Assembly (NCBI GenBank): GCA_050251055.1
Contig: JBFWNL010000001.1
Coordinates: 331,825 to 395,824, forward strand
Direction of reading: 5' to 3'
From: Bacteriovoracia bacterium
Lineage (GTDB): Bacteria > Bdellovibrionota > UBA1018 > JBFWNL01
DNA length: 64,000 nt
Position 1 is the stretch's first letter. Each line of letters opens with the position of its first letter. Below are positions 48,691 through 54,873 of this stretch, in pieces. Made by a program: the position numbers and the translations under genes. Below the pieces are notes generated by a model. That model was not told the DNA's origin. It searched no databases and worked only from the letters and a program-made list of their open reading frames with translations.

Positions 48691-48969
48691 TTACACCCGC
48701 CGCTTTTTTACTTCAATGAAGCTGACGAACTCTCCGTATTTGGGCGTACTCACCACCAAGCTCCAGGTCGTCCCTCCACCCGAGTAGAACTGGATCTGCG
48801 TGGTTTTGTACTTCGATTTGCTCCTACGCTTGGTCGCCTTCACGGCGAGGGTCTTACCCCGGCCGGCGAGCACGATCTCCTGCGCCTGGCTGTTCACGCT
48901 GACGAGGTACTCCCCGGCGGGGATCTCCACCGTACCGCACTCGCCATCTCCGGAAAGGGTGATCTTCAT
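48691..48969 (-). CDS. Small hypothetical beta-rich protein
   Basis: 92 aa; ATGA overlap with the MetRS-like gene. Confidence 0.6.
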   Translation of the reverse strand: MKITLSGDGECGTVEIPAGEYLVSVNSQAQEIVLAGRGKTLAVKATKRRSKSKYKTTQIQFYSGGGTTWSLVVSTPKYGEFVSFIEVKKRRV

Positions 48970-50894
48970 GGGGCGGGAGGAAAGTAATTCCCTTTCGGAC
49001 CGATTTCGTGCCCAGCCGGGATCGGGGTCCCGAGCTCGTCCACGCGGAAGACATCGGTCGGCAGATTCAACGACTCGCGCAGGCGACCCATCGTCGCCGG
49101 CGCGAAAGGATACAGCATGATGAGCAGGTTTTTGAGCACGTAGAAGGCGCTGTAAAGCCCGTCGCGGCGTTGATCCTCCGGGAAGCGGTCATCGTGCGGT
49201 TTATATTGCGTGAAGATGCTGTTGATGGAGCGCGCGTAGTTCTCGATCGCGCCCAGAAGGCTCGCGTACTCGGCGCGGTCCATCGCCTTCACGTACCGGC
49301 GCACGATCTGCACCGTATCGGAGTGGATCTTATCGAGCAGCTTTCCTTCCGGTACCTTACCGCCGAATTTGGAGTGCACCGCGGAGATTGGTTTTTCAAA
49401 CGCCGCGTTCATGGGACCGGCAAGGAAGCGGTTGCGCTCATTCAAAGTTTCGATATCGAAATTCGAGGCTTTTTCCGCGAGGCTGAGCGTGGCCAGAAAA
49501 TAGCGAACCTGATCGGGATCGTAACCCTTTTCGTCGAGGAGCTGATCGCCGGTGTAAAAGTTTCCCTTGGACTTGCTCATCTTCTCGCCGTTCACCTGCA
49601 GATGGTAGACGCCGAAAATGTCCGTCAGCTGGTACTCGTTCTCGAGCGGCAACCGCAAAGGATCCGCCTGAGTGCCCAGCCACATCGCCCCCTGCATGAG
49701 GGTGTAGAAGAACACGTTGTCCTGGCCCAAGAATTGATAGACGCGCGCGCGGGGATTCTGCCAAAACTCGGCGTAGCGCGCGGGGTCGCGCCCACTCGCT
49801 TTAAGGGACACCTGCGAAAAGGAAATGGGGGCAATGAGCGAGTCCGGCCAAACGTAGAGCGTCTTGCCCTTCATGTCGGGATCCACGTCCTCGGGGATGG
49901 GAATTCCCCAGCTCACGTCACGCGTAATCGAGCGGTGTGCCCACTCGTTCACGAGCTCGGTCGGGATCTTCAGCTGCGTCTCCAGCTCGGCCCGGCCCTT
50001 CTCCATGTCTGCGCGCGTATCAAACTGCAGCGCGATTTTCTTGCCGGGCGCGTACCGAGGCTTGTGCTTCGGTAACGTCGCTTTCATCGCCTTGTAGGCG
50101 TCCTCATGTACGGCGTCGAAACGGAAAGCCGGGAGCAGGGTTCCCAACACTTCGGCCAGTACGGGCTTGCGCCAGGTGTTTTCCTTCGTTTGAATCCACT
50201 GGCGCAGCACCTCGGCGACCTTCCACATATCGAGCCAAAGGTGGGCGGTCTCCTTCATGACCGGTACGGCGTCGCTGATGGCGCTCTTGGGGTTCAGCAA
50301 CGAAGAGGACGGATATTGCATGCCGCAGCTATCGCACTCATCGCTGTAGGCGCCTTCGTTCGTGCACTTGGGATTCGGGCACCGGCCCTTCACGTAACGA
50401 TCCGGCAGAAAGCGGTTAAGCTTGGGATCAAACCACTGTTCCGTCACGCGTTTTTCAAGCATGCCGTTTCCGTGGAGCTTGCGAATGAAGTCCTGGGCGA
50501 TTTTTTCGTGGATGGGGTAGCACTCGGGACGGGAGGTGCCGGTGTAAAGCTCCACGCCGATCCCGTAACGCCGAAGCGTCGCCGCCTGCTTATCGTGCGT
50601 GCGGTCGATGAATTCGCGGATGGTAACGCCCGCCTGGATCGCCGCCACTTCGCTGGTCGACCCGTGATCGTCGGTGCCATTCACGAAGAGAACGTTTTCC
50701 CGTCCGATGAGCATGCCCATCCAGCGCGAGAAAATATCGGCCGGCACGTGCGCGCCCGCCAGATGCCCGATGTGCAGCGGCCCGTTGGCGTAGGGCATCC
50801 CCGCCGTCACGACGACGCGTTCGGGTCGATTGACCGTACGCAGCACGGATGGGACATCCGTGGGCGGTCCGCGATTTTCTCCGGGATTGCCCAT
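48966..50894 (-). CDS. metG: Divergent methionyl-tRNA synthetase homologue
   Basis: PYANGPLHIGH, Zn knuckles (CPNPKC, CDSC), ITRDVSWG, YVWPD, KMSKS; no C-terminal tRNA-binding domain. Confidence 0.85.
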   Translation of the reverse strand: MGNPGENRGPPTDVPSVLRTVNRPERVVVTAGMPYANGPLHIGHLAGAHVPADIFSRWMGMLIGRENVLFVNGTDDHGSTSEVAAIQAGVTIREFIDRTHDKQAATLRRYGIGVELYTGTSRPECYPIHEKIAQDFIRKLHGNGMLEKRVTEQWFDPKLNRFLPDRYVKGRCPNPKCTNEGAYSDECDSCGMQYPSSSLLNPKSAISDAVPVMKETAHLWLDMWKVAEVLRQWIQTKENTWRKPVLAEVLGTLLPAFRFDAVHEDAYKAMKATLPKHKPRYAPGKKIALQFDTRADMEKGRAELETQLKIPTELVNEWAHRSITRDVSWGIPIPEDVDPDMKGKTLYVWPDSLIAPISFSQVSLKASGRDPARYAEFWQNPRARVYQFLGQDNVFFYTLMQGAMWLGTQADPLRLPLENEYQLTDIFGVYHLQVNGEKMSKSKGNFYTGDQLLDEKGYDPDQVRYFLATLSLAEKASNFDIETLNERNRFLAGPMNAAFEKPISAVHSKFGGKVPEGKLLDKIHSDTVQIVRRYVKAMDRAEYASLLGAIENYARSINSIFTQYKPHDDRFPEDQRRDGLYSAFYVLKNLLIMLYPFAPATMGRLRESLNLPTDVFRVDELGTPIPAGHEIGPKGNYFPPAP

Positions 50895-50973
50895 AGTTAC
50901 CAAAACTCACTATAAACCTTGGTCCCCAGACGTGCCAGCCTCTTTTGCGCTAAAAATGCTATATAAAGGATGC

Positions 50974-52095
50974 ATGCCTTTACCGACGTGGCCCACGCCG
51001 TCCACTCTCCCCACGCGCAAAATTATCCACGTCGATATGGACGCCTTCTATGCCTCGGTGGAGCAGCACGATCATCCAAAATACCGCGGCAAGCCCATCA
51101 TCGTAGGAGGATCGCCAAAAAGCCGGGGTGTCGTCTGCGCCGCCAGCTACGAGGCCCGCAAATTCGGCGTACGCTCGGCCATGCCCTGTGCCCAAGCCGC
51201 TCGCCTGTGCCCCCAGGGGATCTTCGTTCCGCCGCGCTTCGAGCGTTACGTGGAGATCTCCCGCCAAGTACACGATATTTTTTGGGACTATTCCGGCCAA
51301 GTGGAGTCATTGGGACTGGATGAAGCTTACGTCGACGTCACGGAAAATCTGCGACGACTTCCCTCGGCAACGGCGACCGCAAACGAGATTCGCGCGCGAA
51401 TCTTCGAAACCACCGGCCTCACCGCTTCGGCCGGCGTGGCCGCGAACAAGATGCTCGCCAAGATCGCCTCCGACCTCAAGAAACCCAACGGTTTGACGGT
51501 GATCACGCCGACCCGAGCCGCGGTCGTACTGCGAGATCTGCCCGTACGAAAACTCCCAGGCGTGGGGCCCGTCACCGAAGAAAAGCTCATCAAAATGGGG
51601 TACGCCACGGCCGGGGCGTTAGCCCAGGCTTCCGAAGCGGAGCTGCACGGCGCTTTGGGCAAGATGGGCGGATGGCTCTACCGGGTCTCCCAGGGCCGAG
51701 ACGATCGCGAGGTAAGCTCGGAGCGCGAGCGAAAGTCCGTAGGCAGCGAGGACACTTTTTCCGTCGACTTACTGGACCTGCAAGACATGCACGCGGTGCT
51801 GGCTCGCCTGGCCCGGCAGGTGGCGGATCGGCTGGTGGCCAAGGATCTGCTCGCGCGCACGGTGACGCTGAAGGTGAAGTATGATGATTTCACGCAGAAC
51901 ACGCGCAGCCAAACGCTCTTGCATCCCGCCGCCGATGCGGAACTTTTTCGCGAGACCGCCTGCCAGCTTTTACAAGCCACCGAAGCCGGGCGAAGGCCCA
52001 TTCGCCTTTTGGGGATCGGGCTCTCGCAGCTAGGCGCGCCCGGAGAACCGCCCATTCGGCGTACGCCGATTCAGATGGAATTTGCATTTGTTTGA
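50974..52095 (+). CDS. dinB: DNA polymerase IV
   Basis: HVDMDAFYASVE, SYEARKFGV, LDEAY, KIASDLKKPNG. Confidence 0.96.
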   Translation: MPLPTWPTPSTLPTRKIIHVDMDAFYASVEQHDHPKYRGKPIIVGGSPKSRGVVCAASYEARKFGVRSAMPCAQAARLCPQGIFVPPRFERYVEISRQVHDIFWDYSGQVESLGLDEAYVDVTENLRRLPSATATANEIRARIFETTGLTASAGVAANKMLAKIASDLKKPNGLTVITPTRAAVVLRDLPVRKLPGVGPVTEEKLIKMGYATAGALAQASEAELHGALGKMGGWLYRVSQGRDDREVSSERERKSVGSEDTFSVDLLDLQDMHAVLARLARQVADRLVAKDLLARTVTLKVKYDDFTQNTRSQTLLHPAADAELFRETACQLLQATEAGRRPIRLLGIGLSQLGAPGEPPIRRTPIQMEFAFV

Positions 52096-54673: not shown

Positions 54674-54806
54674 CCAGCCATCTCTCCGTTCTATTTTAAA
54701 ATCCGAGTCGCGGGGGTGTCCCGGCCCAGGATGGGAAAAAGGGTCAAGCCCATGGATGGGCGTCCCTCGTGAGTCGGATTTTAAAATAGAACGGAGAAAT
54801 GGCTGG
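54674..54806 (+). repeat. Dispersed GGA-hairpin element, copy B (43-bp inverted arms)
   Basis: ccagccatctctccgttctattttaaaatccgagtcgcggggg pairs with ccctcgtgagtcggattttaaaatagaacggagaaatggctgg around ccc-AGGAT-ggg and gccc-ATGGAT-gggc. Confidence 0.85.
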
Positions 54807-54873
54807 GGAACTAGGATTCGAACCTAGATAGCCAGAGTCAGAGTCTGGAGTCCTACCATTGGACGATTCCCCA
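54800..54873 (-). tRNA. tRNA-Gln (anticodon CTG)
   Basis: Minus strand TGGGGAATCGTCCAATGGTAGGACT-CCAGA-CTCTGAC-TCTGG-CTAT-CTAGGTTCGAATCCTAG-TTCCCCAGCCA; encoded CCA end. Confidence 0.97.

Follow-up and report, generated by a model that had tools for sequence, protein, structure and literature searches.

A MetRS-derived paralogue of Bdellovibrionota is a probable glutaminyl-tRNA synthetase

A synthetase gene with the fold of MetRS

The gene analysed here lies in a 64,000-nucleotide stretch of the genome of a Bacteriovoracia bacterium (assembly GCA_050251055.1, contig JBFWNL010000001.1, positions 331,825 to 395,824 of the forward strand), which is referred to as the window and in which coordinates are given unless another source is named. 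It is a single uninterrupted open reading frame (ORF) and encodes a relative of methionyl-tRNA synthetase (MetRS), which has 645 residues when translated from a TTG at position 50903 or 642 residues from an ATG at position 50894.

48966–50903, reverse strand: coding sequence of the MetRS-derived paralogue, delimited by the ORF and assigned by the PF09334 match, the AlphaFold2 model, and Foldseek

The protein matches the Pfam family tRNA-synt_1g (PF09334) with an E-value of 2.2e-92; however, it scores below all of the NCBIfam cut-offs for MetRS equivalogs (362.8 versus 587 for NF001100 and 282.9 versus 336.35 for TIGR00398). In Pfam and NCBIfam, its family matches are to MetRS and other class Ia enzymes and do not extend to the GluRS/GlnRS family, and Pfam detects neither a cupin nor any other fused domain. 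The solved structures nearest to it in sequence, as identified by HMMER, are MetRS of P. abyssi (PDB 1rqg, E-value 9.7e-71) followed by MetRS of E. coli (approximately 1e-49). A model calculated by AlphaFold2 from an alignment of 100 sequences has a mean predicted local distance difference test score (pLDDT) of 96.0 and a predicted template modelling score of 0.94. A Foldseek search with this model retrieved MetRS structures throughout, with 1rqg at the top (E-value 3e-40, template modelling scores 0.76 and 0.80, sequence identity 28%). The modelled protein has the MetRS fold.

The organization of the paralogue follows that of MetRS containing a Zn knuckle, represented by the structures from P. 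abyssi (1rqg) and E. coli (1qqt and 1f4l): a Rossmann fold, a connective peptide with the Zn knuckle, a region with the KMSKS loop that contacts the tRNA stem, and a helical anticodon-binding domain succeed each other in the same order. Unlike these enzymes, the paralogue carries an insertion, has replaced both the pocket for the amino acid side chain and the residues that read the CAU anticodon, and coexists with a true MetRS. It also stops after the anticodon-binding domain and lacks the C-terminal dimerization and tRNA-binding domain related to Trbp111, whereas MetRS of E. coli is 677 residues long. The insertion precedes the RSITRD motif and amounts to approximately 61 residues when MetRS of P. 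abyssi is the target in HMMER, the alignment of which jumps from query residue 246 and target residue 213 to query residue 319 and target residue 225.

49941–50156, reverse strand: clade-specific insertion of approximately 60–70 residues with the topology β-α-β-β-α (ferredoxin-like), including an invariant LPxHK loop at 50061–50075; defined by the gap in the HMMER alignment, the secondary structure of the AlphaFold2 model, and invariant alignment columns

A separate AlphaFold2 model of the insertion, comprising 88 residues, has a pLDDT of 85 and has no match in the PDB at a Foldseek E-value of 0.001 or better. The highest of the weaker rows are the C2 domain of MetNI, PII-like proteins, and RNA recognition motifs, which are generic ferredoxin-like folds.

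Catalytic site and recognition surfaces

Residues of the paralogue were equated with those of E. coli MetRS using a MAFFT alignment of the query, eight further members of its family, nine other homologues, and MetRS of E. coli K-12 (metG from NC_000913), together with the HMMER alignment. The numbers of E. coli residues are used throughout, and the equivalences are based on sequence alignment rather than on superposed coordinates. The motifs recognized are listed below; the orthologous loci mentioned are 15 that were found without motif seeding.

50763–50801, reverse strand: GMPYANGPLHIGH, first half of the active site, with GMPYANG at 50781–50801 and HIGH at 50763–50774; Y15 kept, A12G and L13M (alignment)
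50661–50675, reverse strand: TDDHG, containing the equivalent of D52 (D75 of the paralogue), which is invariant in alignments of 100 and 29 sequences (alignment)
50325–50381, reverse strand: Zn knuckle of the connective peptide, CPNPKC...CDSC (C172, C177, C187, and C190), invariant in the 100-sequence mixed alignment and the 29-sequence family alignment
49917–49934, reverse strand: RSITRD, containing the equivalent of R233 (alignment)
49827–49856, reverse strand: YVWPDSLIAP; W253 and D255 kept, L254P, A256S, P257L, G259A, and Y260P (alignment)
49692–49727, reverse strand: GQDNVFFYTLMQ; D296 kept, K295Q, H301Y, and W305Q (alignment)
49569–49583, reverse strand: KMSKS loop, intact (alignment; present in 14 of the 15 orthologous loci)
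49392–49409, reverse strand: NAAFEK helix of the anticodon-binding domain; N391A and R395K (alignment)
49185–49202, reverse strand: KPHDDR where canonical MetRS have the anticodon-stacking motif (K/Q)PW; W461H (without variation in the family and present in 15 of the 15 orthologous loci)

The family of the paralogue retains T10, Y15, H21 and H24 of the HIGH motif, D52, R233, Y251, W253, D296, F300, and the KMSKS residues K332–S336. We take D52 to bind the α-amino group of the substrate in MetRS and R233 to bind the α-carboxylate. Judged from these motifs, the catalytic site is intact, of the class I adenylate-forming type, and equipped with the residues binding an α-amino acid, and the protein is predicted to be an active class Ia synthetase.

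By contrast, the positions that shape the methionine side-chain pocket in canonical sequences (L13, A256, P257, Y260, H301, and W305 or F305) are occupied by M, S, L, P, Y, and Q in all nine aligned family members. The replacements A12G, L254P, G259A, and W461H are likewise found in nine out of nine. In the helix that reads the anticodon, N391 is replaced by alanine, except for one member with serine, and R395 by lysine, with arginine in three of the nine; further changes affect K295 (Q, I, or V) and P306 (G, S, or N). The seven canonical MetRS other than that of E. coli in the same alignment have Y260, H301, and R395 without exception, and six of them have N391. The occurrence of the substitutions in all nine family members, including three that are only 40–45% identical, identifies them as a signature of the clade and not as chance drift. 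Which residues of the E. coli enzyme form the methionine pocket and read CAU is taken as background here and is only partly echoed by the titles of PDB entries 3h97 ('mutant ... with modified specificity') and 8bru ('mutant L13M,I297C').

The rebuilt anticodon surface contains twelve residues that are invariant in the alignment of 29 family sequences (N496, E500, P502, Y553, R555, N558, K565, P566, H567, D568, D569, and R570). Within the 15 orthologous loci, the GMPY..HxGH, R..RD, FY..Q, and LPxHK motifs are as universal as KPHDDR, and YVWP(D/E)SLIAP is present in 14. According to the alignments, the side-chain pocket is rebuilt, and the anticodon surface is rebuilt yet strongly conserved.

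Most of these features had been noticed by eye in the original prediction, which named the intact HIGH, KMSKS, and Zn knuckles, the pocket changes L13M, A256S, P257L, Y260P, and H301Y, the anticodon changes N391A, R395K, and W461H, an insertion of about 60 residues before RSITRD, and the missing C-terminal tRNA-binding domain. All of them are reproduced by the MAFFT and HMMER alignments at positions that differ by a few bases at most, and the MAFFT alignment adds A12G, L254P, G259A, K295Q, W305Q, and P306G to the substitutions.

Coexistence with a canonical MetRS

The search for a second, canonical metG that had been suggested along with the prediction was successful. The host genome (G000) has a size of 3.77 Mb in 21 contigs and a completeness of 93.5%, and encodes a 536-residue MetRS at approximately 142.9–144.5 kb of contig C1, which exceeds the TIGR00398 cut-off (411.3 bits versus 336.35). 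It retains YVWFDALINY, GKDISRFHCVFWPAML, and KPW, and with them the equivalents of Y260, H301, W305, and W461.

The same combination recurs in other genomes that carry the family. Among ten relatives from the same order, nine have a full-length ORF of canonical-type MetRS with HxGH and KMSKS, and the remaining one (G002) has a weak partial match. All five complete genomes of the phylum contain metG above the cut-off beside the paralogue. The same applies to a 9.3-Mb metagenome-assembled genome (MAG), a further MAG, Labilithrix luteola, and Sorangium sp. So ce1000, the last of these with two metG genes. In total, canonical metG is present in 19 of the 20 other family-bearing genomes checked, and the paralogue was not found as the only MetRS in any of the 20. 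The gene under study is a paralogue of the true MetRS. Most likely, it descends from a MetRS of the Zn-knuckle type, as found in archaea and E. coli, and no longer serves methionine.

The canonical MetRS of the host, encoded outside the window (approximately 142901–144511 of contig C1, positions 1006–2616 of locus L001), has HVGW in place of HIGH, YPNSRVHVGWGWE. HVGW also occurs in the MetRS of two other genomes (G006 and G028), and HVGF in that of a third (G007); a search with the paralogue as the query found no other MetRS-sized frame in these three genomes. It is unusual for a class I enzyme that is apparently essential to have lost the second histidine of the HIGH motif.

Extent of the family and its sister clade

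A protein search with the paralogue gave 3637 matches at E ≤ 0.001 among 8000 candidates scored, canonical MetRS included. The best 120 clusters are 66–100% identical to the query, are named 'methionine--tRNA ligase' or 'class I tRNA ligase family protein' in the database, and come from MAGs labelled as Bdellovibrionales, Oligoflexia, Myxococcota, Riflebacteria, and Alphaproteobacteria. In a library clustered at 50% identity, there is a drop in score after 920 bits (at 62% identity); three members with 40–45% identity come next, and then ordinary MetRS at approximately 250 bits. A motif-seeded scan of species genomes confirmed at least 568 loci, including those of cultured Bdellovibrio, Pseudobdellovibrio, Labilithrix, and Sorangium.

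In a tree of 41 sequences from a quick IQ-TREE search, rooted for drawing only, the family, its distant members, and a group of sequences without KMSKS are split from all 24 canonical MetRS with a support of 100% in the Shimodaira–Hasegawa-like approximate likelihood ratio test. The branches within the family are short, with 0.1–0.3 changes per site, compared with 0.6–1.7 for canonical MetRS. The group without KMSKS, which the same joint split identifies as the sister group of the family, consists of proteins of approximately 660–720 residues annotated as 'class I tRNA ligase family protein' (P0137, which is WP_303161905 of Ruminococcus champanellensis, P0138, P0141, P0149, P0150, and P0155), and its hosts are named as Bacillota. 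The sister proteins share with the family M13, P254, S256, L257, A259, P260, Y301, glutamine or glutamate at position 305, and the insertion. They differ from it in having KASSS instead of KMSKS and aspartate or phenylalanine in place of W461, and their overall identity is 29%.

Distribution relative to GlnRS and GatCAB

The occurrence of the paralogue was compared with that of enzymes of the relevant aminoacylation pathways (MetRS, GlnRS, AsnRS, GatA, and GatB). A single set of 301 Bdellovibrionota genomes with a completeness of at least 90% was searched for the paralogue (E ≤ 1e-40), GlnRS (TIGR00440, E ≤ 1e-90), and GatB (TIGR00133, E ≤ 1e-60); a threshold of E ≤ 0.001 was used for GatA. 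The paralogue is present in 101 genomes. Two additional matches, in G103 and G134, were dropped as partial (40–41% identity, frames of 581–589 residues), and the gene is split or truncated in five of the 101 (G296, G152, G061, G096, and G230). GlnRS was detected in 65 genomes, 64 of them above the curated cut-off, and GatB in 225.

The paralogue and GlnRS do not occur together in any of the 301 genomes, whereas 21.8 co-occurrences are expected under independence. Four genera (g101, g61, g62, and g36) include genomes with the paralogue as well as genomes with GlnRS, but never one with both. The 76 genomes that lack GatB comprise 54 with the paralogue, 19 with GlnRS, and three with neither; thus, 54 of the 57 genomes without both GatB and GlnRS carry the paralogue. 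Among the 225 genomes with GatB, the paralogue is found in 47, GlnRS in 46, and neither of them in 132. The pattern is complete in family f21, in which 54 genomes with the paralogue, 17 with GlnRS, and eight with GatB add up to 79 of 79 without overlap.

Four near-complete genomes of this family that carry the paralogue (G127, which is assembled in one contig, G079, G197, and G251) have neither GlnRS nor GatB, nor GatA at E ≤ 0.001, and all four have AsnRS. The sole match to the GluRS/GlnRS family in G127 is a weak one in a frame of 496 residues. Such genomes have no known route to Gln-tRNA-Gln except the paralogue, which is the only candidate for this route in genomes without GlnRS and GatCAB.

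The host genome itself has GatA, GatB, and AsnRS. It has no GlnRS, and its only match to TIGR00440 reaches 83.5 bits (cut-off 425.8) and belongs to a different gene (C1:399639–399998). Outside the phylum, seven of nine carriers of the paralogue are without GlnRS. The family occurs in two of 201 sampled Myxococcota genomes, which is too few for an independent replicate.

Proposed function and alternative explanations

The paralogue probably activates L-glutamine and charges tRNA-Gln directly, as judged from its sequence and the distributions described above, and would thus be a non-homologous functional replacement of GlnRS. In the proposed mechanism, S352, Y397, and Q401, which correspond to positions 256, 301, and 305 of the E. 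coli enzyme, would hold the glutamine carboxamide together with the adjacent N393 (position 297). Glutamine is close to methionine in length. The altered anticodon surface, with alanine at position 391, lysine or arginine at position 395 (K501), and histidine at position 461 followed by DDR, would read YUG instead of CAU, and the ferredoxin-like insertion, of which the LPxHK loop is invariant, may help to bind the tRNA. The title of PDB entry 9l8v, 'PyrN C-terminal domain in complex with L-glutamyl-sulfamoyl-adenosine', describes a MetRS-like fold binding glutamate, and an analogue of the glutamyl adenylate in such a domain indicates that the scaffold can take side chains of this kind.

In the host of the window, direct charging would be the task of the paralogue, which may leave GatCAB to a different purpose such as tRNA-dependent synthesis of asparagine. 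The host combination of the paralogue with GatA, GatB, and AsnRS resembles that of B. bacteriovorus, which has GlnRS, AsnRS, and GatCAB together, with GatCAB proposed to act in tRNA-dependent asparagine synthesis (PMC4206432).

Several observations weigh against this assignment. The amino acid and the tRNA are deduced from phyletic patterns and sequence only, and the argument about the chemistry of the pocket draws on general knowledge of the E. coli enzyme rather than on coordinates or docking. The Fisher p-value of 8e-14 for the exclusion between the paralogue and GlnRS overstates the case, since the genomes are kin, and the firm minimum for independent exclusion is the four genera that include both states. 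Absence calls hinge on the thresholds used and on assemblies that are 90–100% complete. GatB is kept in 47 of the 101 genomes with the paralogue, including the host, and the paralogue is not strictly needed there. Labilithrix luteola (G308) and Sorangium sp. So ce1000 (G309), which have genomes of 12–13 Mb, carry canonical GlnRS in addition to the paralogue and are the only co-occurrences seen. The discriminator base of tRNA-Gln does not co-vary with the enzyme or with the route to Gln-tRNA-Gln: within family f21, A73 is present in the tRNA-Gln(UUG) of G127, which has only the paralogue, and of G203, which has only GatB (loci L133 and L134), whereas four other genomes have G73, two of them with the paralogue alone (G197 and G251) and two with GlnRS alone (G047 and G105). 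The tRNA-Gln(CUG) of the window has G73 as well. Lastly, three Bdellovibrio strains have an initiator-type tRNA(CAU) gene upstream of the paralogue and on its strand, which would be in keeping with a role in methionine charging, at a distance of approximately 190 nucleotides in HCB290 (L082:5737–5813), 160 nucleotides in HCB274 (L087:5766–5842), and 690 nucleotides in HCB2-146 (L089:5237–5313). This arrangement belongs to a single lineage within one genus, so it may be due to chance.

It is unlikely that the paralogue is a second genuine MetRS that recognizes methionine and CAU in an alternative way and serves the initiator tRNA, a stress response, or resistance to an inhibitor. It shares the fold and the catalytic motifs of MetRS, the hydroxyl of Y301 could replace the one lost with Y260, H461 could stack on C34, and the initiator tRNA genes directly upstream in the three Bdellovibrio strains would agree with such a role. 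Second copies of MetRS are found in other bacteria. PMC8165550 mentions MetRS1 and MetRS2. However, the paralogue has lost all of the residues for the methionine side chain and CAU that canonical MetRS universally possess, a second MetRS leaves unexplained both the lack of co-occurrence with GlnRS in 301 genomes and the presence in 54 of the 57 genomes that have neither GlnRS nor GatB, and the paralogue was never the sole MetRS in the other genomes checked. The original prediction had left a choice between a paralogue that differs in its amino acid, tRNA, or function and a lineage-specific MetRS with an alternative recognition code and possible inhibitor resistance. The former is favoured by the second MetRS, the scores below the cut-offs, and the alternation with GlnRS, and is narrowed here to a probable specificity for glutamine and tRNA-Gln; the latter finds no support in the 20 other genomes. 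Inhibitor resistance is also unsupported, as a resistance copy is expected to keep the methionine determinants.

A connection to Gln-tRNA synthesis would be preserved if the paralogue resembled GluRS2 and charged tRNA-Gln with glutamate, from which an amidotransferase then makes Gln-tRNA-Gln. Such an activity, which is quite improbable, would account for the vicinity of gltX and tRNA-Gln genes at some loci, fits the 47 paralogue genomes with GatB, among them the host, and has a parallel in the glutamate-binding MetRS-like domain named in the title of 9l8v. Nevertheless, no known enzyme would finish the reaction in the 54 paralogue genomes without GatB, of which the four tested are also without GatA, and exclusion with GlnRS is not expected from an enzyme of this type. 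It is very improbable that the paralogue is a non-translational, synthetase-like enzyme that aminoacylates a metabolite, a protein, or a tRNA base, in the manner of GluQRS, EpmA, or the hydrazine synthetases, and tracks GatCAB and GlnRS indirectly. Many paralogues of aminoacyl-tRNA synthetases have such roles, and the ferredoxin-like insertion is without a known function. MetRS-like domains act in the formation of N–N bonds (PMC12376268 and PMC8664883). However, the paralogue keeps the Zn knuckle, KMSKS, and a complete and highly conserved anticodon-binding domain, has no cupin or other fusion and no conserved biosynthetic neighbours in 80 loci, and, were it a non-translational enzyme, Gln-tRNA-Gln could not be made in the genomes that lack both GlnRS and GatCAB.

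The preferred assignment as a glutaminyl-tRNA synthetase can be compared with known systems. GlnRS (class Ib, TIGR00440) would make the same product; either enzyme accompanies the loss of GatCAB, and the two are exclusive in the 301 genomes. The paralogue is not a specific homologue of GlnRS, being derived from MetRS with its helical anticodon-binding domain, whereas GlnRS derives from GluRS and its anticodon-binding domains are β-barrels. Class I and class II LysRS, two unrelated synthetases for one amino acid with largely complementary distributions among genomes, are a precedent for displacement. That pair spans both classes of synthetases and is ancient, whereas the paralogue and GlnRS both belong to class I, and the paralogue is short-branched, with a narrow and patchy range. 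In the hydrazine synthetases, such as PyrN, which combine a cupin with a MetRS-like domain, the catalytic domain of MetRS has been re-specified for other amino acids (PMC12376268), including glutamate according to the title of 9l8v. These enzymes have a fused cupin and are encoded in biosynthetic clusters; by contrast, the paralogue has neither a cupin nor a conserved cluster and keeps its tRNA-binding domains.

On balance, the evidence favours the view that the paralogue represents a previously unrecognized class Ia family of MetRS-derived glutaminyl-tRNA synthetases, which would constitute a third route to Gln-tRNA-Gln, next to GlnRS of GluRS descent and transamidation by GatCAB or GatDE, and a second, independent, and evolutionarily recent invention of glutamine specificity. 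The family would have spread mainly in Bdellovibrionota and sporadically in Myxococcota, MAGs labelled as Planctomycetota, and other MAGs, and would have made GatCAB dispensable, so that it could be lost, throughout one or more families of predatory bacteria. To our knowledge, the set of aminoacyl-tRNA synthetase families has been almost closed for decades, with class I LysRS, PylRS, and SepRS as the last additions. A literature search, which mostly did not cover subscription journals, turned up no account of the family and none of a GlnRS derived from MetRS. If confirmed, the family would count as a new one with switched specificity for both the amino acid and the tRNA. The two specificities would have been reassigned together in a natural and recent event, of which intermediates are still alive in the form of the members that are 40–45% identical and the sister clade without KMSKS. 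It would also explain how glutamine codons are translated in dozens of genomes that seemingly have no route to Gln-tRNA-Gln, and the current names 'methionine--tRNA ligase' and 'class I tRNA ligase family protein' would need correcting. A natural glutamine-specific enzyme built on the MetRS architecture would, furthermore, be available to synthetic biology.

Genomic context

The window contains a gene for tRNA-Gln upstream of the paralogue.

54800–54873, reverse strand: tRNA-Gln(CUG) gene, 3.9 kb upstream of the coding sequence of the paralogue and on the same strand

In four related loci (L053–L056), the orthologue is followed by an identical tRNA-Gln(CUG) gene approximately 80 nucleotides downstream. 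The gltX gene is directly upstream of the orthologue in three loci from the same taxonomic order as the window (L010, L012, and L013), and asnS, the paralogue, and gltX are clustered side by side in a Myxococcota-like MAG (L075). Although such arrangements recur, the neighbourhood is not conserved overall. An all-against-all BLASTP comparison of 802 ORFs from 80 loci, based on crude ORF calling, revealed no recurrent neighbour family, and the largest clusters other than that of the paralogue itself were antisense artefacts. A scan of 11 loci with the Rfam gathering thresholds, which could have revealed a riboswitch or leader, returned two tRNAs only. An orthogonal or dedicated tRNA was considered and dropped: ARAGORN finds 45 standard tRNAs in the host genome, the three with a CAU anticodon being those of the initiator, elongator methionine, and Ile2 types.

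Immediately downstream of the paralogue, an ORF of 92 residues on the same strand (48691–48969) begins with an ATG that shares bases with the stop codon of the synthetase gene. Pfam gives no match for this ORF, which does not recur beside orthologues at other loci. On the other side, a gene for a DinB-type DNA polymerase IV with IMS and IMS_C domains (50830–52095, forward strand) is divergent from the synthetase gene. Both start codons are predictions, and at its greatest length the DinB ORF extends across the 5′ end of the synthetase ORF, which lies on the opposite strand.

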